DNA of 64,000 nt from Candidatus Obscuribacteraceae bacterium (GTDB lineage: Bacteria > Cyanobacteriota > Vampirovibrionia > Obscuribacterales > Obscuribacteraceae), in contig JBGAHS010000004.1 of the NCBI GenBank assembly GCA_044226015.1, positions 608,001-672,000 of the forward strand. Reading direction: 5' to 3'. Below, one piece after another: positions 21,388 through 60,968 of this stretch. The position numbers and the translations under genes are program-made. Positions within the stretch are counted from its first letter, which is position 1, and the number at the start of each line of letters is the position of its first letter. Below the pieces are notes generated by a model. It searched no databases. It had not been told where the DNA came from and worked only from the letters and a program-made list of their open reading frames with translations.

Positions 21388-21799
21388 GCTTGCGTAGATA
21401 AACACGAATCCGAACTGAAGCGGTACCGTTTGAGCAGTGGAACAGAAGCGGTACCGATTGCGTTGTGATTTGCCCTTGGCAGAAAAACCGTATGTGTAAG
21501 AAAACTGCTTGCGTAGATAAACACGAATCCGAACTGAAGCGGTACCGATTGAGCAGTGGAACTGAAGCGGTACCGCTTGCGTTGTGATTTGCCCTTGGCA
21601 GAAAAAACGTATGTGTAAGAAAACTGCTTGCGTAGATAAACACGAATCCGAACTGAAGCGGTACCGTTTGAGCAGTGGAACAGAAGCGGTACCGTTTGCG
21701 TTGTGATTTGCCCTTGGCAGAAAAAACGTATGAGTAGAAAAATCGCTTACGCACCTAAACATGAATCCGAACTGAAGCGGTACCGATTGCGTTGTGATT
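21388..21799. repeat. 119-bp tandem array (~3.4 units), two CGGTACCG-core motifs per unit
   Basis: GGTACC at 21422, 21541, 21660, 21779 and at 21450, 21569, 21688 (period 119, internal offset 28). Confidence 0.95.
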
Positions 21800-25562: not shown

Positions 25563-26350
25563 CGGTAGCGTTTTAGTTTCCGGGAAAATCTGCGCGCCTT
25601 GTGGCGCAGAAAAACAGGAGAACTAAACCGGTACCGTTTGAGTTTCCGGGAAAATCTGCGCGCCTTGTGGCGTAGAAAAACAGGAGAACTAAACCGGTAC
25701 CGTTTGAGTTTCCGGGAAAATCTGCGCGCCTTTGGGTGCAGAAAAACAGGAGAACTAAACCGGTACCGTTTGAGTTTCCGGGAAAATCTGCGCGCCTTGT
25801 GGCGCAGAAAAACAAGAGAACTAAACCGGTACCGTTTGAGCTTCCGGGAAAATCTGCGCGCCTTGTGGTGCAGAAAAACAAGAGAACTAAACCGTTACCG
25901 TTTGAGTTTCCGGGAAATCTGCGCGCCTTGTGGCGCAGAAAAACAAGAGAACTAAACCGTTACCGTTTGAGTTTCCGGGAAAATCTGCGCGCCTTGTGGC
26001 GCAGAAAAACAGGAGAACTAAACCGGTACCGTTTGAGTTGCCGGGAAAATCTGCGCGCCTTCGGGTGCAGAAAAACAGGAGAACTAAACCGGTACCGTTT
26101 GAGTTTCCGGGAAAATCTGCGCGCCTTCGGGTGCAGAAAAACAGGAGAACTAAACCGGTACCGTTTGAGTTTCCGGGAAAATCTGCGCGCTATGTGGCGC
26201 AGAAAAACAAGAGAACTAAACCGGTACCGTTTGAGTTTCCGGGAAAATCTGCGCGCCTTGTGGCGCAGAAAAACAAGAGAACTAAACCGTTACCGTTTGA
26301 GTTTTCGGAAAAATCTGCGCGCCTTCTGGCGCAGAAATACATGAGAACTA
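25563..26350. repeat. 66-bp tandem array (~12 units) with the near-palindrome AACTAAACCGGTACCGTTTGAGTT
   Basis: Unit GTTTCCGGGAAAATCTGCGCGCCTTGTGGCGCAGAAAAACAGGAGAACTAAACCGGTACCGTTTGA; 11 core sites from 25630 to 26289, three of them GTTACC variants. Confidence 0.97.
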
Positions 26351-26484: not shown

Positions 26485-29400
26485 ATGCGCGTGAGCAATT
26501 ACCGTAAAGCTACTGTCGGCATCGGTTTAGCAGCCTACTCGATATTTTTGTCTGCTCAGCTCGGTTGTATACCAGCGGCAAGCGCACAAGATTCGAGCAG
26601 TAGCTTAACAGGTTCTAACTTTGGATCCGTCCTTCCTCAGGGAAGATTTGCTAATCCTTCTTCACCATTTTTTGCGCCTTCGCCGTTCACCGAAAAATTA
26701 GGAGTGTCTCCAGAGAGCTCATTCGAGGGACAAGAGACTACGAGCCCGGTTCTCACTCAATCTGCTGTGAATGCTGCAGCTTCAGCCTCGGATGGAGCGA
26801 TAACCAATGTGCAAAGAGCCTGGTACAAGTTCCTTGAGCCTAGCTTGAATCTCACTCGGGCGCTTGAGGATGCAGAGCATAAGCGCATTCTCTCTGTCGT
26901 TCCAATGCCTCTCAATATTCGCGGGGGAGATCGCCGAACTGAAATCCGCACTGCACTTTTACGCGCGGATTCCAGTCTGGAGTACTCCTGTTTCAAAACA
27001 ATTTATGGCAGTTTGTTTGGACGCTCCAATTCTCTGATAATGAATGTTTCGGGCAACATCGTAAGAGTGTTCAATATATCGGGTAAGGACAAGGACGTTC
27101 TGTTCAAGTTATCGAACGGGCAGATCATTGCCCTCGGTCCAGGAACTGAGTTGATAATCTCTAAATCGATGGACAGTTCCGATTTAAATGTTTGCGATGG
27201 TTTGGCTCGACGTGGCTTCACCAAAGTGATGAAGTGCGCTGATTTGCAAATGGGGTTTGCGCAGTTCTCATACGCAAGTGTTTGTGACACGCCAGAGATG
27301 AAGTTCTATTTGTCACATCAAAGTCCGAAAATTGTCGCTGATCTCAAAACTATGATTTCGAAAATAGAAGAGCTTCGCGGCACAGGTGGATTTAAGTTAG
27401 CGCTTCTTCCCGGTGAGCGCCACCAATTGCAAGCTGAAGTGAAGAAGAAAGAGACCGCCGTTCCAAAAACTAAGATTGAGATGGCTGCTGAGCTTAGGGC
27501 TAAGGAAGAGAAGGAAAAAGCTGCTGCTAAAGCAAAAGAAGAACTTGCCAGACTTCAGCAATCGAAAGATGAAGCGAAGCAGAAAGAGATTGCTAAAGTA
27601 AAGTCTGACGAAACCAAGCAAAAAGAGATCGCGAAAGCAAAAGCAGAAGAAGCGAAGCAAAAAGAGATCGCGAAAGCAAAGGCAGAAGAAGCGAAGCAAA
27701 AAGAGATCGCGAAAGCAAAAGCAGAAGAAGCGAAGCAAAAAGAGATCGCGAAAGCAAAGGCAGAAGAAGCGAAGCAAAAAGAGATCGCGAAAGCAAAGGC
27801 AGAAGAAGCGAAGCAAAAAGAGATCGCGAAAGCAAAGGCAGAAGAAGCGAAGCAGAAAGAGATCGCGAAAGCAAAGGCAGAAGAAGCGAAGCAAAAAGAG
27901 ATCGCGAAAGCAAAAGCAGAAGAAGCGAAGCAAAAAGAGATCGCGAAAGCAAAAGCAGAAGAAGCGAAGCAAAAAGAGATCGCGAAAGCAAAGGCAGAAG
28001 AAGCGAAGCAGAAAGAGATCGCGAAAGCAAAGGCAGAAGAAGCGAAGCAAAAAGAGATCGCCAGACTTAAAGCTGCTGAAGAGGAAGCTGCGCGCTTAAA
28101 AGCTGAGGAGGAAAAAGCAAGGAAAATTGCTGAGGCAAAAGAGGCTGTGCGTAAAGCCAAAGAATCTGCCAGAGCCAGGGCTGAAGAGTTGAAGCAGAAG
28201 GAAATTGCTCTGGCTAAGGAAGAGGCAAGACAGGCCGCTGAGGCAGAGAAGCAAAAAGAACTCGCTAAAGCAAAAGAAGCTGCTGAGAAAGAAAAGCTCA
28301 AGCTGGCTAAGGCTGAGCAAGCCGCTAGAGCCAAAGCTGCAGAGGCTCAATCTAGAGAACTTGCTCGTGCAAAAGAGCAAGAAGCCGCTGCTAAATTAGC
28401 TGCTGAGAAAGCTGAGCAGATTGCCAAAGCCAAGCAAGCTGCTGCTGAGTCTAAGGCTCAACAACAAACGAAAGTGGCGGAAGCGAAACGCCTGAAGGAA
28501 GAGGCTGCAGTAGCGAAATCCCATCAACTGGAAGAAGAACGCAAACTGGCAGAAGCCCAGAAGAAGACGCGTGAAGAGACTTTGAAAGTTGCGCGAGCCC
28601 AGCAGGCAGAGGAAGAAAGAAAAGCAGTTGAGAAAGCCAGAAAAGAGCAAGACGACAAGATAAGAATTGCTTTGGCGAAGAAGCAAGAGGCAAACCAGAA
28701 AGCTGAGTTGGTGGCTAGGAAGGCAAAGGAAGATGGCATCCATGTAGCGCAATCCAGAGACGCTGCTGAGAAAGCTGAGCGTTCAAAAGCTGCTAAGCTC
28801 GGCGAACCAGAAAAGGCGCAGTTTGGAGCAAGCCCAGCTCTACGCGAAGGTGTGCCTGTTGCTAACGCAGGTATTACAGATGCTTCCGCCGCGAAGCGCG
28901 AGTCAATGCGATTGAAGTTGCTAGATAGAGCAAAGCATATGGCAATTAATGCTAGAGGAAAAGAGCAGACTAAGGATATAGCTAATTCATTAAAGGATGA
29001 GGAATCGGAAGGTACCCAACCTGTACTGAGACCTGTTCCTCCGCAGAGTAAAGCAGCTGTTCAGCAGAGCTCGGCCGCTGCTAATGCTAGTGAGATTGCT
29101 AAGGCACTTGCAGAAAAATTGAAAGAGAAGCAAAAGCGTATCGCTACGATTGGCGGAAAGGTGAAAGAGAACCTAGCCGCCAAGGCCGCGAAAGTGGCTG
29201 AGGCGACAAAAGCTTCTGCCGCTGCTTTGACACCGAAGCCAGTACCAAGTACTCCAGAACCGCCAATGGTGGCAGATCAAGCAGCCAGAAAGTTGCTTCC
29301 GCGAAGATTGCCCGGACCTGATACACCGCCGGCAATTGCACGCCTGTTGCTAGATGCCGACAAAGAAGAGAAGACCGCAATCGCCCTGAGGAAAAAGGCT

Positions 29401-31064: not shown

Positions 31065-31179
31065 AGGTGTTTGATGCAATAGAACTATGCTAGGGGCATT
31101 GTTGTGACCCAATTCGATTTCTGGATTTTGTTGGAAGGAGTAAAGGCTACCGGGAATGCTGACTCCGGGACGGAATCGG

Positions 31180-31483
31180 ACGCCAGCGCGAAAGGACGCT
31201 GGGACGGAACCGGACGCCGGCGCGAAAGGATACCAGCGCGAATAAATGCCAGTGCGAATGGATGCCGGCGCGAAAGGATGCCAGTGCGAATGGATGCCGG
31301 CGCGAATGGATGCCAGTGCGAATGGATGCCGGCGCGAATGGACGCCAGCGCGAAAGGATACCAGCGCGAATAAATGCCAGCGCCAGTGGATACCCGCGCT
31401 AATGAATGCCAGCGCGAAAGGATACCAGCGCGAATAAATGCCAGCGCCAGTGGATACCCGCGCTAATGAATGCCAGCGCGAAA
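31180..31483. repeat. ~16-bp degenerate minisatellite (GCCAGCGCGAAWGGAT) with higher-order duplication
   Basis: More than 15 variants of RCCRGYGCGAAWRRAT; the block GGATACCAGCGCGAATAAATGCCAGCGCCAGTGGATACCCGCGCTAATGAATGCCAGCGCGAAA is duplicated. Confidence 0.9.
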
Positions 31484-31493
31484 ATTTCAATAC

Positions 31494-31772
31494 CTAAGAA
31501 GCAAGTGGAGCCCAGTCGTTGAGACCAATTCTGATCAGATCTTCCACGTTAAGTCCACCCGAGTGGACTAGTGTGCCATCTACTATTAGGGACGGGATTT
31601 CGCTCAGCCCTCTCAGTTTTGCTAAGTCGTATTCGCGCATTTTTCGAACGTCATGCAAGACTATATTCCATCGGGAATAACAACAGTGCTCTTCGAGCAG
31701 AGCCACTGCGGATTTTGATATTGAAGTTGAGTTCGTGTAAATATCGATTGTTTTCTTGGCATTTAGTAGCAC
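31494..31772 (-). CDS. Small thioredoxin/glutaredoxin-fold-like protein lacking CxxC
   Basis: TIDIYTNS..(STSIS where CxxC is expected)..AKLRGLSEIPSLIVDG resembles the glutaredoxin cis-Pro strand; has an internal CC pair. Confidence 0.5.
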   Translation of the reverse strand: MLLNAKKTIDIYTNSTSISKSAVALLEEHCCYSRWNIVLHDVRKMREYDLAKLRGLSEIPSLIVDGTLVHSGGLNVEDLIRIGLNDWAPLAS

Positions 31773-32256: not shown

Positions 32257-32462
32257 GATTTTCTCCGGAACTGAAGCGGTACCGGATAGGATTTTCTCCG
32301 GAACTGAAGCGGTACCGGATAAGATTTTCCCCGGAACTGAGGCGGTACCGGATAATATTTTCTCCGGAACTGAAGTGGTACCGGATAATATTTTCTCCGG
32401 AACTGAAGTGGTACCGGATAGGATTTTCCTCCGGAACTGAAGCGGTACCGGATAGGATTTTC
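32257..32462. repeat. 33-bp tandem array (6 units) with GGAACTGAAGCGGTACCGG
   Basis: GGTACC at 32278, 32311, 32344, 32377, 32410 and 32444. Confidence 0.97.
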
Positions 32463-32580: not shown

Positions 32581-34026
32581 ATGCTGCGATTTAAGCTGAT
32601 TATTCTGACTGGAATTTCTGTCACACTGCTTTCCGGCTTAGGGGCTGAAGCTCGGGGTGGGCATGGTGGAGGTGCTCGTTCCAGCGGGGCGCGTGCTGCT
32701 TCGGTTTCAAGAGCGACTAAGAATGCAGGTATGGCCGATGCTTATGGTTCTGGTTCAGCGTCCAACCAGAATCTTCCTGGGAGCCGGTTGGGTCGAGCCG
32801 CGGATTTAATGGGGGCTGGAGATTTTTCAAGAAAAAGAAATGAGCGCGACAGTGCGTTGACTAATCTTCGGACGCAGTTGAGTGAACGCGGTGGGAACGA
32901 AAAGTTCAACCGACTGCGAGAAATGTCAGAACATACTCCAGGTAAATTCTCCAAAAGAGCTGAGGAGCGACAAAACCGATTGAACAGGCTACAACACACG
33001 GATACTGCAGCAAATCGCACAGCAAGTTTACTCTTAAAGAATCGTGTGCCATCTAATGCTCCGACAATAGGGAATGCAAACGGTACCTGGCGGCTAAGCA
33101 AACTCGGTTCAAACCAGCGAAGAAATTGGTCGCAATGGGGCGACAAGAGTGGCACCACCAAAAATGGTGGCTCATATGATGTGAATCGTGACTACAGTTA
33201 CAGCAAAGAGAGTGGGCTGACCAAAACTGTTGAAACGACAGGAAGCACAGCAAATGGTGGCAGCTATGACAAGACAAAGTCAGTGACAGCTGGAAACGGG
33301 CAGGGCTACAGTAAGTCGACGGATCTTACAGGAAGTAAAGCAAATGGTGGCAGCTATGACAAGACAAAGTCAGTGACAGCTGGAAACGGGCAGGGCTACA
33401 GTAAGTCGACGGATCTCACAGGAAGCACAGCAAATGGTGGCAGCTATGACAAGACAAAGTCAGTGACAGCTGGAAACGGGCAGGGCTACAGTAAGTCGAC
33501 GGATCTCACAGGAAGCACAGCAAATGGTGGCAGCTATGACAAGACAAAGTCAGTGACAGCTGGAAACGGGCAGGGCTACAGTAAGTCGACGGATCTCACA
33601 GGAAGCACAGCAAATGGTGGCAGCTATGACAAGACAAAGTCAGTGACAGCTGGAAACGGGCAGGGCTACAGTAAGTCGACGGATCTCACAGGAAGCACAG
33701 CAAATGGTGGCAGCTATGACAAGACAAAGTCAGTGACAGCTGGAAATGGGCAGGGCTACAGTAAGTCGACGGATCTCACAGGAAGCCCAGCAAATGGTGG
33801 CAGCTATGACAAGACAAAGTCAGTGACAGCTGGAAATGGGCAGGGCTACAGTAAGTCGACGGATCTCACAGGAAGCCCAGCAAACGGCGGCAGCTATGAT
33901 AAGACAAAGTCAGTTACAGGCGGAAACGGGCAGGGTTACGTTAAGACAACGGGACGTTCCTATAACAAGGGGAGTAGCGAAAACAACCTTAACGACAAGC
34001 CTGACTCTGCGACTGGCGTGAAGTGA
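32581..34026 (+). CDS. Secreted Gly/Ser/Thr-rich protein with 30-aa tandem repeats
   Basis: Signal peptide [24 protein letters not shown]; about 8 copies of [30 protein letters not shown]. Confidence 0.8.
33241..33945 (+). repeat. 90-bp coding tandem repeat (~8 units)
   Basis: Units start at 33241, 33331, ... 33871 with near-identical DNA. Confidence 0.97.
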
Positions 34027-34147
34027 GCTGCGCGCTGTAATGTTGAATGCCCCGCTGCTGGTGCCTCAGCTTTGGTCCAACGCCCGAAAACAAACCGAAA
34101 CTTCCGAACCCGGTATCGATCCAGATTCGATCATCCAATCGGATCTC

Positions 34148-34372
34148 GAACCGGATCCAGAACCGGATCCAGAACCGGATCCAGAACCGGATCCAGAACC
34201 GGATCCAGAACCGGATCCAGAACCGGATCCCGAACCGGATCCAGAACCGGATCCAGAACCGGATCCCGAACCGGATCCAGAACCGGATCCAGAACCGGAT
34301 CCAGAACCGGATCCAGAACCGGATCCCGAACCGAATCCTGAACCGAATCCTGAACCGAACCCGGATCCCGAA
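34148..34372. repeat. 12-bp minisatellite (GAACCGGATCCA)n, ~18 copies
   Basis: Directly visible; degenerates at both ends. Confidence 0.95.
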
Positions 34373-34563
34373 ACCAGACTTCCGCACCCGGATTCCTAAC
34401 CCAGGGTTCCGCACCCGGGTGCTAAATTTCAGAATTAATCTCTCGGGAGTCTGTCTTCTGCCGGTCCAGGCTTTTTTGGAGTTTTTCCTACGTATTTTCC
34501 TCAATTGCCTCAGGCAGCACAAAGCACTAATCTGTATCCAATTACATCGCGTTCGGGGGAACG

Positions 34564-36606: not shown

Positions 36607-36670
36607 GAGTTTCGGGGAAAATCTGCGCGGCAGAAAAACATGAGAACTTAGCCGGTACCGCTTCAGTTTT
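36607..36670. repeat. Solo degenerate copy of the 66-bp unit with the palindromic motif
   Basis: GAGTTTCGGGGAAAATCTGCGCG-GCAGAAAAACATGAGAACTTAGCCGGTACCGCTTCAGTT matches the 25563-26350 unit with a ~9-bp deletion. Confidence 0.9.
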
Positions 36671-39723: not shown

Positions 39724-40276
39724 GAAGAACTAAAGCGGTACCGTTTCGGTGAAGAACTAAAGCGGTGCCGTTTGGGTGAAGAACCAAAGCGGTACCGTTT
39801 CGGTGAAGAACTAAAGAAGTGCCGTTTGGGTGAAGAACTAAAGCGGTACCGTTTCGGTGAAGAACTAAAGAGGTACCGTTTTGGCAGAAGAACTAAAGCG
39901 GTACCGTTTCGGTGAAGAACTAAAGAGGTACCGTTTTGGCAGAAGAACTAGAGCGGTACCGTTTCGGTGAAGAACTAAAGCGGTACCGTTTCGGTGAAGA
40001 ACTAAAGAGGTGCCGTTTCGGTGAAGAACTAAAGAGGTACCGTTTTGGCAGAAGAGCTAAAGCTGTACCGTTTTGGCAGAAGAACTAAAGCGGTACCGTT
40101 TCGGTGAAGAACTAAAGAGGTGCCGTTTCGGTGAAGAACTAAAGCGGTACCGTTTCGGTGAAGAACTAAAGCGGTACCGTTTGGGCGAAGAACTAAAGCG
40201 GTACCGTTTGGGCGAAGAACTAAAGAGGTAACGTTTCAGCTGAAGAACTAAAGCGGTACCGTTTGGGCGAAGAACT
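39724..40276. repeat. 27/28-bp tandem array (20 units) GAAGAACTAAAGCGGTACCGTTTCGGT
   Basis: 20 units counted by hand; variants AGGTACC, CGGTGCC and TTTTGGCA are interspersed. Confidence 0.97.
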
Positions 40277-47883: not shown

Positions 47884-49305
47884 TTGAGCGCACAAGCCGG
47901 AGGCACGATCATTATGTTGAAGAACCCCAAATTCGGGGTGGTATCGCTCGGTTGCCCTAAAAACCAGACCGACACCGAAGTTATGCTTGGACTACTGAAG
48001 GAAGCTGGCTTCGATCTCACCTTTGACAATGATGAAGCTGATATTTGCCTGATCAACACTTGTTCCTTCATTGAGGATGCCAGGCGCGAGTCGGTGCGCA
48101 ACATTGTCGATTTAGCAACAGATGGAAAGCAACTGATTATTGCAGGTTGCCTTGCGCAGCATTTCAAGGACGAGTTATTGAATGAGCTGCCTGAAGCAAG
48201 AGCTGTCGTAGGAACCGGTGACATACACAAAATCGTTGATGTTGCTAAAGCGATAGTGGAAGACTCAAGCTTGCGCATTGTTCAAATTTCAGCAACACCC
48301 AATGACCACGTGGACACGGTGATGCCTCGCATCTCCACAACTGTAGGCGCTTCTTCTTATCTCAAGATTGCAGAAGGCTGTGATCATTCCTGCACGTTCT
48401 GCATTATTCCAATGTTGCGAGGAAAGTTCAGATCTCGTTCAATTGACTCGCTAGTGCAAGAGGCAAAAATTCTTGTTGCTGCAGGAACCCGAGAAATTAT
48501 TTTGGTGAGCCAGGATTCCAGTTATTACGGCTTGGATACGTTAGGAAGAATGGCTCTTCCCGAGCTTCTCGAGGCTTTGCATGAAATTGAAGGATTGGAG
48601 TGGATTCGAATCATGTACTTCTATCCAACAGAAACAAATAGAAAATTACTTGAGACTATGGCTCGTCTTCCGAAAGTAGTGAAGTACGTCGACATTCCTT
48701 TGCAGCATAGTCACCCAGATGTGCTGAGAGCCATGGCTAGACCTTTGAACCCCGAGAAATGTGTAGAACTTATTCGGGAAGTGCTTCCTGAGGCAGCTAT
48801 TCGCTCAACCTTTATTGTGGGCTTCCCAGGTGAAACTGAGGAACAATTCGAACATCTACATAACTTCATTCAAACTCATCAGTTTGATCGGCTTGGTGTC
48901 TTTGCCTACTCGCGCCAAACTGAAGTACCTAGTGGAAATATGGAAAATCAGATTCCGCAGAAAGTGAAGAAAACTCGCCGCAACAAGATAATGGAAACGC
49001 AGCATAAGATCTCCACTGAGCGAAACGCTCGCTTGCTTGGAAAAGAAATCGATGTTTTGTTGGAAGGATACGATGAGGTCAAACAAGTCTATTTTGGTCG
49101 TAGCCAATGGGATGCTCCGCAAATAGACAACACTGTTTACGTTGATGCGAATAACTTAGACCACAATTCTCTCGGAGATATAGTTAGAGTAAAGGTTACG
49201 AAAACTAAGCCTTATGATCTTTTTGGCGAGGCTGTTATGGATGAATGCGAATCTGACATCTGCAGTTCTGTTTCCGTTTCCAGTCTCACAGAGGTAAAGG
49301 TTTAG
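47884..49305 (+). CDS. rimO: Ribosomal protein S12 methylthiotransferase
   Basis: SLGCPKN, INTCSFIEDA, AGCLAQ, YLKIAEGCDHSCTFCIIP (radical SAM), FIVGFPGET, DAPQID (TRAM). The start may be the ATG at 47914. Confidence 0.95.
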   Translation: MSAQAGGTIIMLKNPKFGVVSLGCPKNQTDTEVMLGLLKEAGFDLTFDNDEADICLINTCSFIEDARRESVRNIVDLATDGKQLIIAGCLAQHFKDELLNELPEARAVVGTGDIHKIVDVAKAIVEDSSLRIVQISATPNDHVDTVMPRISTTVGASSYLKIAEGCDHSCTFCIIPMLRGKFRSRSIDSLVQEAKILVAAGTREIILVSQDSSYYGLDTLGRMALPELLEALHEIEGLEWIRIMYFYPTETNRKLLETMARLPKVVKYVDIPLQHSHPDVLRAMARPLNPEKCVELIREVLPEAAIRSTFIVGFPGETEEQFEHLHNFIQTHQFDRLGVFAYSRQTEVPSGNMENQIPQKVKKTRRNKIMETQHKISTERNARLLGKEIDVLLEGYDEVKQVYFGRSQWDAPQIDNTVYVDANNLDHNSLGDIVRVKVTKTKPYDLFGEAVMDECESDICSSVSVSSLTEVKV

Positions 49306-49423
49306 GTGAAGCAAGCCTCGTTGAATACTCAAAGTACATAGTGCTTTCGCGCTATAGTGAGGAAGTTCCTTTGGTGCTGAGAACTCAAGTGGTGTCAAAT
49401 GCGCCACCACTCTGCCTAAATTT

Positions 49424-49473
49424 ACTCAAGCGGTACCGGTTGGGCCATAATGCTAAATCGGTAACGCTTGAGT
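49424..49473. repeat. Inverted doublet of the CGGTACCG motif (18-bp arms, 2 mismatches, 14-nt spacer)
   Basis: ACTCAAGCGGTACCGGTT (49424-49441) and AATCGGTAACGCTTGAGT (49456-49473). Confidence 0.85.
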
Positions 49474-49506
49474 TTTGCTTTTGAGCTAGTCGATGTAACA
49501 GAAATA

Positions 49507-49556
49507 GCACGAGTTTGAGTGCACGTTTCAATGGAAACGTGCACTCAAACTCGTGC
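49507..49556. repeat. Perfect inverted repeat, 23-bp arms with 4-nt loop
   Basis: GCACGAGTTTGAGTGCACGTTTC-AATG-GAAACGTGCACTCAAACTCGTGC. Confidence 0.97.
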
Positions 49557-49698
49557 CTTGGTTATACAAAGTCCGATTTCTAATTGAAAATGGCTTTGTA
49601 CCATCATTTTGCAATTAATTCCGACGCCAGATTCATGCTCAAAATCTGGTTATGGTCTCAGCAATTGGGGAAATAGCAATTGGCGTAAAGAGCGACAT

Positions 49699-50856
49699 TT
49701 AACTAGCTAATGGTACGCGCACGTGCAGAGGCGTAACGTATGCAAGTAGGTCTTGCCTTGTCACAGGTTCAACATCTATAAAGTGAAAGATTAGTTCGTT
49801 TTCTTTCCATACTTTCTTTTGCAGGCGGCACCAATAGAGTGCAAGGTAGAGTTGAAGATACTTCCGACTCACTCGATGTCGCACTGTTTTGGAGCTATTG
49901 ATGAATTGTCGTACAGACTGCTGCTGCTCCTCAGGCATTTCCTGTGAAGGCTTTGCATTTTGTTTTACCATTTTGAAAAGTTGTCCAGGTAATAATTTTA
50001 TGAGTCCTTTTAGTTCCAGCATTGAAAGCAATGAAAATAGTTCACCAATATCCAGCCCAGTTCCCTCTGCGATATCATCCACACTAATGAGCTCAGCAGT
50101 CATCATTACTTTGAGAACAGACCTTTCTTGAGCGGTTAGACCGATTAGTTGATTAATGGCATCCAAAAAATTCTCATCTTCTGACGCTTTTGACTGAGTA
50201 GATTCCTTGCTTGTGGCATCGCAATTCTGCTGCTCAGAATCTCGATTATCCGAATCTTGCTTTTCAGAATCTTGCTTTTCAGAATCTTGCTTTTCTGAAT
50301 CTTGCTTTGAGTCAGTTGAGTCGGGATTCTTCTTTTGATTCTGAACGTTTTCTTGCTGCTCCAAGATGTATTGCTCTTTCTTTGGATGCTCGTTTGCGGG
50401 TGTTTCTAGACTACGTCTTCCAAATATTTCTAGGAACTCTGAAGATGGTACAAGAGGTAAGTCCTCCAGTTTGCTTAATGAGAGATACGCTATCGTCTTT
50501 GAAACAAGTTGTGCAGTGCTAAGGGCAACGCCAATCAATTTTGCAAACTCGCTATCCGAGAATTCCACACCTAAATTTGTGAACCACAGTCCAGCAAACC
50601 AGGCTCGGATTCTTTTCTTTCTAAAAAAGATAGTGCCATTGAAAATTCGATTTTCCTTGCCACAGTTTGCGCATATTTTTACTCTGAATGCCTTTGATTC
50701 AATGTTGTCTTTGCTGCCGCAGTGATTACACGGCATCCCTTCGGACCACTTATGGTCTAGCACGAAGAGTGCGCATGTTTCGTCATCTGGAAAAAGCTCT
50801 TCGAAGTGTGGATATAGGCGTGCGAATTCGCTAGGTTCCTTGCTCATGGAAACCAC
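49699..50856 (-). CDS. IS1595-transposase-derived protein: Zn ribbon + HTH + DprA-like winged helix + IS1595-like C-terminus, no recognisable DDE core
   Basis: FPDDETC..KWSEGMPCNHC..CANC..GTIF..AWF..FAKLIGVALSTA resembles the IS1595 N-terminus; LTAQERSVL..SVDDIAEGTGL..LSMLELKGLIKLLPG resembles the DprA winged helix; HRVSRKYLQLYL resembles the IS1595 C-terminal motif. Confidence 0.7.
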   Translation of the reverse strand: MVSMSKEPSEFARLYPHFEELFPDDETCALFVLDHKWSEGMPCNHCGSKDNIESKAFRVKICANCGKENRIFNGTIFFRKKRIRAWFAGLWFTNLGVEFSDSEFAKLIGVALSTAQLVSKTIAYLSLSKLEDLPLVPSSEFLEIFGRRSLETPANEHPKKEQYILEQQENVQNQKKNPDSTDSKQDSEKQDSEKQDSEKQDSDNRDSEQQNCDATSKESTQSKASEDENFLDAINQLIGLTAQERSVLKVMMTAELISVDDIAEGTGLDIGELFSLLSMLELKGLIKLLPGQLFKMVKQNAKPSQEMPEEQQQSVRQFINSSKTVRHRVSRKYLQLYLALYWCRLQKKVWKENELIFHFIDVEPVTRQDLLAYVTPLHVRVPLAS

Positions 50857-51127
50857 CTCAAAGTGATAGTGCTTACAAATCTAATAACGTAATTTGTACT
50901 CAAAAAGTTCAAAATTGATCGAAAAAAGTTTTTGGTGTTTTTCTTACAGCACTTGGTTCTGAATAATTATGTGATTGAAATGTTGGAAAAACTCTTTCGA
51001 TGAAGGAAAAATATTTGTACTTTTGTTCGATCCCGAGCAGGTCATTTAGCGATTGGTACTTAAAGGTTTTTCTGACCAGAGTTTTAGGGAATAATTGAAT
51101 CATTGCAGAGTTAACATTGTGTGAAAA

Positions 51128-53056
51128 ATGATAGGTGAGCTAATAGCAGGAAAATTTAGGATTGTCGAGGACCTGGGTTCTGGGGGAATGGGTCGCGTAT
51201 ATAAAGCAGAACAGATTGATCTGAATCGAACCGTTGCAATCAAAATTCTGCATCCCGAAATAACTGATACCAATGCGATTCTGAAAGAAGCCAAAGTTCT
51301 TGCAGGACTAAGAGACAAGTACATTGTTGAGGTTTTCTCGGTAGGCGAATTATCTGATGGATCACTATATCTGGTTATGGAGTATGTTGAAGGAAAAACT
51401 CTAAGTCGCATTGTTTTTGAATCAGGGCATCTCCCTGAAAGTAGGGTGGTAAATATAGGTTTGCAAATTTGCCAGGCTATTCGAACCTTGCACTCGCAGA
51501 AAATAATTCATCGTGATCTCAAATCAGCAAACGTAATCTTAAGGCAGGCAGCAGATGAAGAGCTAGTCAAAGTTCTGGATTTCGGTCTTTCAAAAAAATT
51601 CAAATCTGAACATCAACATAAGACTTCGACAGAAACAAAAACTGGGATGTTAATTGGTACTGTTGATTACATGTCGCCGGAGGTTTGCTCTGGACAGAAA
51701 GCAACTGAAGCTTCTGACATATATGCTCTGGGCTGCATCTTGTTTGAGTGTTTGACTGGTAGACTCCCTTTTGTTTGTGACAATTGGGTTGGTTTAATAT
51801 ACAAGCACCAGCACGAGCAAGCCCCGAAGCCCTCGACGCTACAAGCTGGGATAAGTTCAATTATTGATACCACTGTTTTGAAATGCCTGGCAAAAAATCC
51901 GTCAGATCGATTTAGCGTTTCTGAATTGCAGGAACATCTTCAAAGAATTCAATGCGGAGCTGCAACTGAGGTTTTGGTGTCAGGCTCAAAAGGACAACGT
52001 GTATGGATTAAAACTGTAGCTAGTATAGTGGTTTTTGGATTGATATTTTGCGTTGTTGCCAATATTGCACATCTTCGTGAATCTAGAAATCAGAATTTAT
52101 CAAAAGATTTAGTGATGCTAGATTCTCCAAGTAGAGGATTAAAGGCTCGGCGAAAATCTCTTGATACAGCTTCAGCTGGAACATGTTTTGAAACACTGAA
52201 ATCGCTGAGTTCGGAAGACCCTCAGCCTGTAGAGGAGATGATTTCTATATGTTCTCGGCTTGAAAAAATTGCAGTTAAACATGAAGATCTTTTTGTTGCA
52301 TACCAGATGCATGGAAAACTACTCAACAATCGTGATGAAGTTGTTGCGTGCTTTGAAAATGCACTTCACCATGCCTTGTTAAGTGCAGATGGGCAATACA
52401 CTATTGAATCTATGTTTCCTCTATACGGATTGTTTTCCTACTACCACCAAAACAAAAAAGATGCGCAGCAGGAAGAACTCGGCGAGAAATTGGTTCGTCT
52501 TGCGGACAAACAGAAAGTGCTTGCCTTGCCATCTTTGAACTGCAATTTTAATATCAGCTTGCTTGCTTTTGGAAATGATATTGGAGCATTGACAGAGGAA
52601 TCTCTTTCCGATTATTACTACAGGAAGGGCAATCTGAAAAAGTGTATTTTGTACGGTGAGCGAGCCATCGCGGATTTCATTGATGTTCCAGTCGACGCTT
52701 ACATCCTGGTTAGCAAAGCTTATTCGGCAACGTCTAGAAAAGCGCTTGCCATTAAAACTATGGAAAGCCTAGAGAAGCGGCTGGCAGAGGTGGAAATTGA
52801 TGTGACAATGTCGATTAAAGGTAAAAAGAAAAGTTATACCGGGCTTTTGAATGCTTCAGGTGGAAGTAAGCTTGTTCGGGATTATTTTGCACTGGCGGAG
52901 TATCAGAACTCTGCAGGAAAGAAATCAGAAGCCATAAAGACATACAAGAAGATCCTTGAAGTAGCACCTCAATTTTGGTCGTCGCGATATTATGCAAATG
53001 AGGATATTGTGAAAATCCTGAACAATAGCTGGTTGCATCTTGCGGAATTGATTTGA
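51128..53056 (+). CDS. Hanks-type Ser/Thr protein kinase with TM segment and TPR-like C-terminal region
   Basis: LGSGGMGRVY, VAIK, HRDLKSAN, DFG, GTVDYMSPE, SDIYALG; TM VASIVVFGLIFCVVANI. Confidence 0.93.
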   Translation: MIGELIAGKFRIVEDLGSGGMGRVYKAEQIDLNRTVAIKILHPEITDTNAILKEAKVLAGLRDKYIVEVFSVGELSDGSLYLVMEYVEGKTLSRIVFESGHLPESRVVNIGLQICQAIRTLHSQKIIHRDLKSANVILRQAADEELVKVLDFGLSKKFKSEHQHKTSTETKTGMLIGTVDYMSPEVCSGQKATEASDIYALGCILFECLTGRLPFVCDNWVGLIYKHQHEQAPKPSTLQAGISSIIDTTVLKCLAKNPSDRFSVSELQEHLQRIQCGAATEVLVSGSKGQRVWIKTVASIVVFGLIFCVVANIAHLRESRNQNLSKDLVMLDSPSRGLKARRKSLDTASAGTCFETLKSLSSEDPQPVEEMISICSRLEKIAVKHEDLFVAYQMHGKLLNNRDEVVACFENALHHALLSADGQYTIESMFPLYGLFSYYHQNKKDAQQEELGEKLVRLADKQKVLALPSLNCNFNISLLAFGNDIGALTEESLSDYYYRKGNLKKCILYGERAIADFIDVPVDAYILVSKAYSATSRKALAIKTMESLEKRLAEVEIDVTMSIKGKKKSYTGLLNASGGSKLVRDYFALAEYQNSAGKKSEAIKTYKKILEVAPQFWSSRYYANEDIVKILNNSWLHLAELI

Positions 53057-53155
53057 ACTTGCGGAATTGATTTGAACTTACGGAATTGATTTGAACTTAC
53101 GGAATTGATTTGAACCTGCGGAATTGATCTGAGCGTGCGGAATTGATTTGAGCTT
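53039..53155. repeat. 19-bp minisatellite (CTTGCGGAATTGATTTGAA), 6 copies, first copy contains the kinase stop codon
   Basis: CGGAATTG at 53043, 53062, 53081, 53100, 53119 and 53138. Confidence 0.95.
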
Positions 53156-53326
53156 GCTTAGCAGAGTTGATGTACTCGCACAAGTGGTGGGATCTCTAGC
53201 AAATCACTTTTTGTGGAGGATTTTTTTTTTTTTGATTTTGTAACTTCACGCTGAGTTCACGTTGTTTTCACTCCTGATTCACATAAGTTTTCTAGATTGA
53301 TTGTATGAGGAAATGGGTGTGCAAAA

Positions 53327-53791: not shown

Positions 53792-55555
53792 ATGAAGAGA
53801 AAGCTGCAGACATTTTTAATTTCGGCTCTTCTCAGCAGCCCCACAGCAATGGCTGAACGTGGCTTGGTAGTTTTTGCGGATACGAAGGACCTAGCTGGCG
53901 CAAAGGCAAAAGGTTCGATACTGGCGGATGCACTAGCTGCGGAAATAGCTGCGGAAATAGCTGCGGAGTCCGGGCTGAACTCAGATCGCACGACAGCACG
54001 ATTCGTCGTTTATGAGCCGCACTCGGAGGCAGGTGCTATCTTTCGCGGGACTGAAGCGAACTTTATCAATCAGGGTGCAGTTGAAGCGAGCGCGGGAGCG
54101 AGTCCCTTGAGCTCCAAAAAGGATGTAGTTAATCCAGATGTTACCATCTCTGGTCATCGGGTAAAGCCAGCTGTGATCTCTGCCAATCAAGAAAAGGATA
54201 CGGCAAATCCCGCGGCAAATCCCGCGGCAAATCCCGCGGCAAATCCCGCGGCAAATCCCGCGGCAAATCCCGCGGCAAATCCCGCGGCAAATCCCGCGGC
54301 AAATCCCGCGGCAAATCCCGCGGCAAATCCCGCGGCAAATCCCGCGGCAAATCCCGCAGCAAATCCCGCGGCAAATCCCGCGGCAAATCCAGCAGCAAAT
54401 CCTGCAGCAAATCCCATTACAAATTCCACCACCGATTCGAATACTGCTGGAGTCTCCGGTTCCAGTCCCGTGATTCCTGTGGAACCCAGCGCATCGCTCT
54501 CGGACTCTGTAGCAGACAGCCTCAGCTCGCTGGAAAATACATTATTTGGCAGAACTTTTAATTCTGACAAGGCTAGTGACAGGCTAGTCAGAGTTGAGCG
54601 GTTTGTGTTCGGTGAAGAGGCGAAGGGCGAGCCAGGCGTGCGATTGCAAAAGCTATTCGCTGCCTTGAGTAAAAAGAATCAAAATGGAGATGCATCAAAG
54701 GAAACTATTTCTGCCTCGCACTCCAAACCTCGTGGAGTTCTAGCCACCATAAATGATGGCATAGATAATTACAATCGCCACCGATTTCATAACGCCGAAG
54801 ATGATTTCAATGATGCTCTGGATATGGCACCAGGGATGCCGAGAATTTACGTCTATTTGGGCGTAACGCTTTTGCAAATAAATCAACGTCAGTCCGCCAT
54901 AGATGCCTTACGTACAGCTTATGAATTGGACCCTTTTGGAACCTATGGTCGCTACGCTAAACATTGTCTTATCGTTCTCATGGGCGATGAGGAAGTTCGA
55001 AAACGTGGTCCAAAAGACAATTTGAAAACGGTAAAGAACACTATAGATTCGTTGAACAAGCGGGCTGGTGATGAAGCGACCAGGCAGGGACGATTTGCAC
55101 AAATAATGGCTCAGGCAAAGCAAGCGTCGGCAAATGGTTTTGCCAGCAGTCTAAGTCAGAATTCTGATACATACAGCAGCGAAATAGCTTTGAGGCAAAG
55201 TTTTGTGAGAATGGATGCCATGGTTCAAATGGCGAGGGTGCGTCAGGAAGCGGCTCAACGAGCTGCTAATACGCGTGAGGCTGCTAACAATTTGAAGACG
55301 CAGATCTCGGCGAAGCTGATGCCTGGTGATGCGAAATTGCGCGCTTTTGGGACTACCTTGCACGCCAGATATTATGGAGACGAAACATATAACCTGGCTC
55401 CATGGTATATTCCTCGGGAGATGCCACTTCAGCTCAAGGCTCAGGCTGTTTTGCTACCTACTTTTTCTGCGAAGAGCAAATCAAAGAAACTAAGATCTGC
55501 CACTGTCAAACGAAATTCGAGCATAACAAAATCAAAAAAGTACAGGAGACGTTAG
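53792..55555 (+). CDS. Exported protein with NPAA repeat linker and TPR region
   Basis: Signal peptide [73 protein letters not shown]. Confidence 0.8.
54201..54415 (+). repeat. 12-bp coding repeat (GCAAATCCCGCG)n encoding ANPA, ~18 copies
   Basis: Directly visible. Confidence 0.95.
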
Positions 55556-60633: not shown

Positions 60634-60968
60634 GGATGCGGAACTGAAACGGTACCGCTTGGGATGAGGAACTGAAACTGTACCGCTTGGGATGAGGAAC
60701 TGAAACTGTATCGCTTGGGATGAGGAACTGAAACTGTACCGCTTGGGATGCGGGACTGAAACGGTACCGCTTGGGATGCGGAACTGAAACGGTACCGCTT
60801 GGGATGAGGAACTGAAACTGTACCGCTTGGGATGAGGAACTGAAACTGTACCGCTTGGGATGAGGAACTGAAACTGTATCGCTTGGGATGAGGAACTGAA
60901 ACGGTACCGCTTGGGATGCGGGACTGAAACGGTACCGCTTGGGATGAGGAACTGAAACGGTACCGCTT
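60634..60968. repeat. 28-bp tandem array (12 units) GGAACTGAAACGGTACCGCTTGGGATGA
   Basis: Core sites from 60651 to 60959 in 28-bp phase; variants CTGTACCG and CTGTATCG. Confidence 0.97.

Follow-up and report, generated by a model that had tools for sequence, protein, structure and literature searches.

The window analysed here is a stretch of 64,000 nucleotides on one contig (C7) of G000, the 8.19-Mb, 92%-complete genome of a Candidatus Obscuribacteraceae bacterium; G- and L-numbers and C1, C4, C7 and C11 are working labels throughout. It contains a minus-strand open reading frame related to IS1595 transposases, together with an upstream promoter-like motif, a downstream site doublet and hairpin, and several further arrays of palindromic sites (Table 1). 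The frame is intact and encodes 385 amino acids, the length stated in the preliminary description, when counted from GTG, or 382 from the likely start, an ATG preceded by a GAGG ribosome site. The perfect hairpin and motif doublet that the same description placed near the stop codon are both real. Proteins related to this one are referred to below as the DDE-less family.

The neighbouring genes are presumably metG, coaBC and rimO, judging by their sequences. The family gene and a divergent Ser/Thr kinase gene (49699-53056) are flanked by rimO and a small TPR-like gene, which directly follows rimO in G006 and is separated from it by one short ORF in G005.

Table 1. Positions of the gene, its parts and the associated sites in the window
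Feature	Position	Strand	Remarks
Site array, 7 cores	21418..21788	.	Part of gene-centred domain
Site array, 11 cores, 66-nt period	25626..26298	.	
Site array, 33-nt period	32274..32453	.	
Single site	36650..36663	.	Flanks in common with the 25.6-kb array
Site array, 17 cores, 27-28-nt period	39733..40264	.	
Palindromic site doublet (CGGTACCG / CGGTAACG cores)	49424..49473	.	Adjacent site of the window paralog
Perfect 23-bp hairpin	49507..49556	.	Terminator-like on both strands; fold z -10.9
DDE-less IS1595-derived protein gene	49699..50856	-	Likely start ATG 50847, 382 aa; one of eight G000 paralogs
IS1595 C-terminal helices (G/R-V-S-R-K-Y-L-Q..YL)	49744..49935	-	Profile alignment
Winged helix captured from host-lineage dprA	49981..50142	-	Keeps L-x-x-L-E-L helix
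15-nt tandem repeat (DSEKQ linker)	50223..50308	-	Paralog-private, length-variable
Family-specific motif F.(K/R)RS.xTPA..HP..E	50374..50424	-	Where the first IS1595 catalytic strand would begin
IS1595-type zinc ribbon and helix-turn-helix	50467..50856	-	Pfam, profile alignment, ESM Atlas
TTGAACTTTTT-N12-CGTT (TGAAC-N17-CGT), likely ECF-sigma promoter	50886..50912	-	Regulon comparison
Site array, 10 cores, 28-nt period	60647..60968	.	

Origin and architecture of the DDE-less family

Both ends of the protein resemble an IS1595 transposase. In profile-profile alignment, 78 family members matched 21 intact IS1595 transposases (20 from genomes of the same taxonomic family and one from another family of the same class) with a probability of approximately 100%, over residues 5-128 and about 305-368 in the 382-aa numbering, whereas the catalytic middle does not align. 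The top ESM Atlas matches of the N-terminal part are IS1595 zinc-ribbon clusters (0.93), and the Pfam profile Zn_ribbon_IS1595 matches residues 23-67 below its cut-off (E 1.3e-4). Three of the four zinc-ribbon cysteines are invariant and the fourth is kept in 77 of 78 members; together with the helix-turn-helix, the ribbon likely forms the part that binds the palindromic sites. The IS1595 origin and the loss of the DDE core, both proposed in the preliminary description, were upheld. DDE_Tnp_IS1595 (PF12762) matched neither the window protein nor any of 82 members, and an HMM of the lineage's own DDE core matched 0 of 228 family sequences vs. 21 of 21 transposases. No acidic triad columns occur in the family alignment. 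In the predicted model of a winged-helix-less member (pLDDT 89.9), helices predominate and the five-stranded sheet of RNase H is missing. As previously claimed, no inverted repeats were found to bracket the frame; the flanks of the paralogs have promoter and site motifs in common, with no element ends among the flanks viewed. At the place of the first catalytic strand of IS1595, the family has a motif of its own, whose R, S, T, P and E are kept in 147-149 of the 150 sequences examined.

Fold searches added little to this comparison. For the full-length model, the matches were all winged helices of a generic kind (best Z 7.7, rmsd 2.4, 67 residues aligned), and Foldseek gave none at E 0.001. 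The winged-helix-less core matched nothing at Z of at least 5 among 48,161 chains (best Z 4.0; the ISCth4 transposase scored Z 3.1 with rmsd 8.7); for a predicted structure, this outcome is no evidence of either a novel fold or a difference.

The winged helix near the C-terminus was correctly attributed to the DprA type. Pfam places DprA_WH at residues 239-292 of the window protein, above the cut-off (E 2.8e-10), and in 75 of 82 members, whereas the Rossmann domain DNA_processg_A is absent from the Pfam matches of the same 82. An HMM built from 30 DprA winged helices of the host lineage aligns with 77 of 78 members, the domain being nearly identical to that of host DprA, and its best sequence match among solved structures is DprA (3MAJ, E 8.5e-4). 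The previous count of three nucleic-acid-binding modules did not hold, because the DprA winged helix is reported to recruit ComM and not to bind DNA (10.1101/2024.10.21.619469). Likewise, the DSEKQ linker is not a module: the underlying 15-nt tandem repeat is private to the window gene and missing from homologues.

According to the same study, Vibrio cholerae DprA contacts ComM via L350, E353 and L354, tolerates E353Q, and the equivalent helix touches ComM in both Vibrio and Helicobacter (10.1101/2024.10.21.619469). These residues were mapped onto the L-x-x-L-E-L helix solely by their spacing. On this mapping, the E353 equivalent is E281, a position occupied by E in 69 and by Q in 8 of 77 members; the L354 equivalent is hydrophobic (L in 53 members); and the L350 equivalent is T in 51 members, as it is in 26 of 30 host DprA proteins. 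The presumptive contact residues are among the best conserved of the helix, which is likely, on this sequence comparison, a ComM hook.

To judge from these alignments, the protein is a relic of an IS1595 transposase that lost its DDE core and took a winged helix from host DprA. Its zinc ribbon, helix-turn-helix and C-terminal helices link it to IS1595 transposases (PF12760 and PF12762); unlike them, it has neither DDE core nor terminal inverted repeats, whereas its conserved new motif, the winged helix that it captured and its competence-type promoter set it further apart. Similarly, it shares with DprA a closely matching winged helix (PF17782), the interface helix and the regulon of comM. In contrast to DprA, however, the helix is fused to a transposase scaffold, predicted to be sequence-specific, rather than being part of a single-stranded DNA-binding RecA loader, and it belongs to a multi-copy family in which some members have lost it.

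Of 25 genomes from the same taxonomic family, 18 contain full-length members and another has a piece at a contig edge; the 16 genomes searched from other taxonomic families yielded none. Two named homologues belong to Candidatus Obscuribacterales. A profile search retrieved 688 clusters at E 1e-30 or better, the best 150 of which all have the winged helix. Copy number in related genomes ranges from 0 to about 20. G000 carries eight full-length paralogs, the other seven being 31-40% identical to the window protein; a search of the genome, which is 92% complete, found no IS1595 DDE domain. No earlier description of a DDE-less, DprA_WH-bearing family was found in a search of mostly open-access literature.

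In a tree built from N- and C-terminal columns, paralogs cluster largely by genome, those of G000 falling together in a single clade of eight (support 0.998). Three winged-helix-less members of G065 (L273, L277 and L280) are nested within the tree and thus lost the domain, whereas two others, L086 (G013:C7) and L276 (G069:C1), branch basally, on N-terminal columns only. L086, which has retained the promoter along with a degenerate site, may reflect the condition preceding winged-helix capture; L276 has neither. A conserved winged-helix-less subfamily of approximately 288 amino acids was also observed, as was a member, P0142, that is extended at its N-terminus by about 160 residues.

The family is under purifying selection, with dN/dS of 0.15-0.25 in 5 of 14 sequence pairs, dS being saturated in the remaining nine. 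This much agrees with the earlier view of a domesticated protein. A stable host gene is doubtful, however, because the gene is absent after rimO in 5 of 5 same-genus genomes (flank fetched up to 1.5 kb) and paralogs expanded lineage by lineage. The gene thus shifts position over evolutionary time even without a DDE core, although in another genus the gene flanks are conserved in one pair, its members coming from two species. A search for empty-site strains in four contig sets with thin cover gave no joint bypassing the gene, and a metagenome scan for empty-site alleles gave low-complexity matches only.

An upstream motif in common with competence genes

Approximately 50-60 nt upstream of the start, 73 of 79 members carry TGAAC-N17-CGT at 15 bits or more, on a scoring matrix for which 63 of these members served as training sequences; on a matrix trained solely on other genomes, all eight G000 paralogs score 22-36 bits. 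The form with the 17-nt spacer occurs 38 times in G000 vs. 15 times in the reversed genome, whereas spacers of 16 or 18 nt are no more frequent than in the control. The motif has the shape of an ECF-type promoter. No sigma-70 promoter was found within 49250-51200, and the motif was missing before the four intact IS1595 genes checked.

Twenty-eight G000 matches of at least 19 bits lie outside the family. Thirteen are ahead of genes for DNA uptake, recombination or replication: comEC, a comF-like gene, comM (YifB, at C1:781416-782960), yraN, radC, priA, dnaB, dnaE, nrdA, xseAB, an sbcC-like gene, recA (679 nt away) and recJ (301 nt away). Another match lies before an operon of an ECF sigma factor and a zinc-finger anti-sigma factor (L096, C1:118245-121010), which also includes a Spy/LTXXQ-like gene. 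The other 14 are ahead of Spy/CpxP-like genes, DUF1800, DUF6088, an integrase and unnamed genes, or are followed by no ORF. Conservation is strong at comM (22 of 22 loci in the host's taxonomic family and 3 of 3 in its sister family, but 0 of 5 in others) and at the sigma gene, where the motif precedes 21 of 21 orthologues and only one of the 18 sigma genes of G000.

Because the motif is common to comM, comEC, comF, yraN, radC, recA and a self-marked ECF sigma gene, it points to a competence-type regulon. Given its shape and the self-marking, it would be read by the L096 sigma factor, a candidate competence regulator of Obscuribacterales; since half of the matches are not at DNA genes, this factor may serve a broader stress response. 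Both the competence-type promoter and the multi-copy nature of the family go beyond the preliminary description. The motif precedes dprA at only 6 of 30 loci and is missing from dprA of G000 (L109, C4:394229-395374), although comM, comEC, comF, yraN and radC of that genome have it. A DUF6088/AbiEi-like gene (C11:1316598-1317056) and a tyrosine integrase gene (C4:26787-28097) of G000 also carry the motif and may be other mobile genes timed to competence. A search of mostly open-access literature found nothing on natural transformation in Obscuribacter.

Palindromic sites and their domains

The sites are palindromes (CG-N4-CG) of about 24-30 bp, typically AACTCAACCG-N4-CGGTTGAGTT, with a variable central 4 nt. 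One is adjacent to the gene in 61 of 73 members (52 upstream and 9 downstream) vs. 1 of 73 in the reversed control, so that the link between gene and repeat, previously drawn from proximity at one locus, is now considerably stronger. In G000, a site lies within 400 nt downstream of four of eight paralogs, compared with 3.2% of 1709 control genes. Most members in other genomes have it ahead of the promoter, at a distance of 35-150 nt and often centred in a perfect, zero-loop palindrome with paralog-specific arms of 11-32 bp. The long hairpin downstream of the window gene does not generalise. Such hairpins follow 6 of 8 G000 paralogs but 1 of 69 members elsewhere, where the palindrome is upstream, and were rejected as a family trait; the palindromic site itself is widespread at homologues. 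The three winged-helix-less members of G065 retain adjacent sites (two with tandem arrays) and the promoter was found in two of them; accordingly, the ComM hook is unnecessary for the link to the site.

The 14-nt site pattern is far above control in 14 other family-bearing genomes, weaker in three single-copy genomes (7 vs. 3 in G005, 7 vs. 1 in G018 and 9 vs. 9 in G016), and at or near control in six family-free genomes and in G002. No sites were found at the other regulon members, whether at the 28 motif promoters, the 22 comM loci or the 21 sigma loci. Set against 61 of 73 family members, these 71 empty promoters and loci indicate that the sites mark the DDE-less gene and rule them out as operators of the competence regulon. 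An origin as fused IS1595 ends was also rejected, there being no clear match to putative inverted repeats at 21 transposase loci. No residue code for the site variants is evident by eye.

Most sites are intergenic, between core genes and often just past stop codons, and they are enriched between convergent genes (23 of 51 vs. 610 of 3179). Many are terminator-like, which could provide a cause for the long arms that is independent of the protein. This location, the usual position 35-150 nt upstream of the gene's own promoter and the purifying selection would suit a DNA binder that serves the host or is neutral, for example an autorepressor or a matS/parS-like chromosome organiser of the competence phase, with sites doubling as terminators and the winged helix as a passenger. 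Such a role is improbable, however, given a copy number of 0 to about 20, positions that are not kept across the genus, the conservation of the ComM-contact residues and, in G000, an adjacent site downstream of the gene, a poor position for an operator.

Sites also accumulate in the wider surroundings of the genes. In four of six mapped genomes, each gene is surrounded by a domain of approximately ±50-100 kb, often with a gene-specific variant, in which site density drops with distance. For six of eight G000 paralogs, palindrome variants are the most locally enriched 12-mers. The window gene's variant has 10 of 13 clusters within 70 kb, and the other variants have 11/11, 9/11, 3/3, 3/5 and 6/17 within 70 kb of their own paralogs, the last being spread more widely (C1:155-865 kb around a gene at 478 kb). 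Each variant is near its own paralog and near no other. As the variants were chosen from local enrichment, the match of variant to paralog is partly circular, but this circularity spares the absence of variants at other paralogs and an unfiltered scan of 131 tiles, in which a CG.TA.CG word was among the top three 12-mers in 8 of 16 paralog tiles and in 2 of 115 paralog-free tiles, both beside a paralog tile.

Other genomes differ in how marked these domains are. All 32 sites of G069 lie at most 78 kb from one of three genes, and 23 of 23 non-adjacent clusters are within 85 kb. In G012, 20 of 20 exact sites lie at most 70 kb from one of three genes, with four degenerate matches on another contig, and 15 of 19 non-adjacent clusters are within 85 kb. 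The first 50 of 72 sites in G041 form two dense clusters of different variants around two genes and a scattered tail, with 22 of 44 non-adjacent clusters within 85 kb. In G021, too, a variant is clustered locally. By contrast, the ten genes of G001 each have an adjacent palindrome and the wider domain is absent (10 of 21 within 85 kb, P 0.21), the domain is weak in G091 (4 of 12, P 0.02), the broad pattern of G019 is at control level, and there is hardly any domain around the paralogs G0_2 and G0_4.

A founder site copied locally could give rise to domains with their own variants even if the paralogs did not differ in what they recognise. In a further reading, an unrecognised active site, formed by the RS.xTP..HP..E and SRKY motifs, would copy the palindrome, and sometimes the gene, into intergenic spots nearby, as a cis-acting counterpart of RAYT/REP timed to competence. 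The near-invariance of the new motif would agree with an enzyme, as would the multiplication of genes and sites in G000 without an intact IS1595 transposase to act in trans. Flank sharing is 0.42-0.44 within domains vs. about 0.30 between them in two of six domains; in the other four, it is near background. Moreover, the RNase H sheet and acidic triad are lacking, and 0 of 38 single sites outside G000 have a fixed-length target duplication scoring at least 10, making an enzyme quite unlikely. MITE-like insertion with target duplication was rejected: the direct repeats at G000 sites are partial tandem units of 21-43 nt, and those in other genomes are at control level.

RAYTs are active HUH enzymes, mostly single-copy and vertically inherited, with repeats spread genome-wide. 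RAYT (TnpA-REP)/REPIN systems resemble the DDE-less family in having a transposase-derived gene flanked by cognate intergenic palindromes and several gene-repeat groups per genome; unlike RAYT, the DDE-less protein is DDE-derived and coreless, is tied to competence, and has repeats that cluster locally in G000, G012 and G069. No Y1 (HUH) transposase family appears among the Pfam matches of 82 members. By the defining features of each group, the DDE-less family is outside IS1595, DprA and RAYT; in its predicted action, it comes closest to a manipulator of ComM that is directed to local sites.

Tandem site arrays occur in G000, G065 and G069, whereas sites in G012 and G021 are mostly single. The arrays, along with the upstream motif at dnaB, dnaE, priA and nrdA, recall iterons, at which ComM and a co-induced replisome might over-replicate the neighbourhood and enrich it in released DNA. 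Such amplification is very improbable given the single sites of G012 and G021 and the description of ComM as a branch-migration rather than a replicative helicase (10.1101/2024.10.21.619469). The arrays in G000 may be explained by a genome seemingly prone to tandem expansion. Unrelated tandem repeats in the window lie at 27450-28159, 31164-31531, 33148-34407, 53011-53170 and 54153-54464, and a 19-nt tandem repeat differs in length between samples. Elsewhere in G000, a motif of about 35 nt (core CACCCAATTTTCGTATGATG) that is not palindromic occurs 24 times, at C11:81-101 kb and C11:1239-1288 kb and mostly at spacings near 2 kb. It has no relation to the palindromic sites and probably represents the flank common to the genes of an expanded array.

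Possible action on transformation through ComM

Taken together, the sequence features suggest that the DDE-less protein probably influences transformation via ComM, whether by promoting or by hindering it. ComM is reported to be a helicase required for insertions and deletions by transformation, and mobile elements to benefit from blunting it (PMC11441513; PMC12378983). The reading preferred here, with a probability of roughly 0.45, is that a selfish, cis-preferring site binder made in competence engages ComM and shields its neighbourhood from overwriting. The ECF sigma factor encoded at C1:118313 would read the upstream motif during competence, and zinc ribbon and helix-turn-helix would bind the palindrome of approximately 24-30 bp as a dimer, mostly in cis, a preference reported for IS1 transposase (PMC12903888). 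Competing with DprA, the winged helix would then catch ComM, and branch migration would be stalled or diverted by the bound protein. Site-bound protein could block branch migration even without the winged helix, which fits the existence of helix-less members. A marked region would thus overwrite unmarked recipients and seldom be overwritten itself, a one-way flow that would maintain an otherwise useless gene. Every new copy of the site within the protein's reach would be favoured, giving a density that declines with distance.

The genomic pattern does not fix the direction of the effect, and promotion of the integration of marked DNA fits it nearly as well. In this alternative, the protein would catch the hairpin on incoming single-stranded DNA and load ComM (with YraN) in the manner of DprA, thereby aiding integration of site-marked DNA, the gene itself included, much like an uptake sequence at the recombination step. 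Folding of a single strand would explain why zero-loop palindromes vary by paralog and yet remain perfect (arms 11-32 bp), and the variable central 4 nt are as expected of a loop. A site beside nearly every gene could also anchor new copies, and the winged helix is reported to load ComM natively in DprA (10.1101/2024.10.21.619469). However, action in trans should scatter sites genome-wide, whereas 32 of 32 sites in G069 and 20 of 20 exact sites in G012 are near a gene. A recipient without the gene would, moreover, have no cognate protein, and the arms are explicable by terminator function. Promotion as such is consequently considered unlikely. DNA uptake sequences, for comparison, are driven genome-wide. 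Protection is preferred because a trans-acting factor should spread marks throughout the genome, whereas a shield limited to cis rewards only marks nearby.

The same contrast separates the sites from other repeats. DUS/USS and cyanobacterial HIP1 are short, genome-wide repeats read by a fixed host receptor. Like them, the sites of the DDE-less family may accumulate via transformation bias and, as is often the case for such repeats, double as terminators; unlike them, they are longer, belong to a mobile gene with many copies and, in several genomes, are local. With mobile-element inhibitors of transformation (AbaR islands disrupting comM, RocRp, Rok and ComI), the DDE-less family has a predicted purpose in common, namely to avoid, via ComM, its removal by natural transformation; the known inhibitors cut transformation cell-wide, whereas the DDE-less protein would act locally with comM intact (PMC11441513; PMC12378983).

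More tentatively than the protection itself, the system could amount to a gene drive borne by transformation, in which copies seed palindrome territories of 100-200 kb, a stolen DprA hook controls ComM and transfer is one-way. Such a territory would include core genes, transferred whole between cells.

Whatever the mechanism, gene-centred and variant-specific repeat territories in the core chromosome are surprising. Obscuribacterales are the non-photosynthetic sister group of cyanobacteria, and the analysis also yielded a candidate competence sigma factor, anti-sigma factor and promoter for this order. If the preferred reading is true, recombination would be locally controllable by a selfish gene through the recruitment of ComM.
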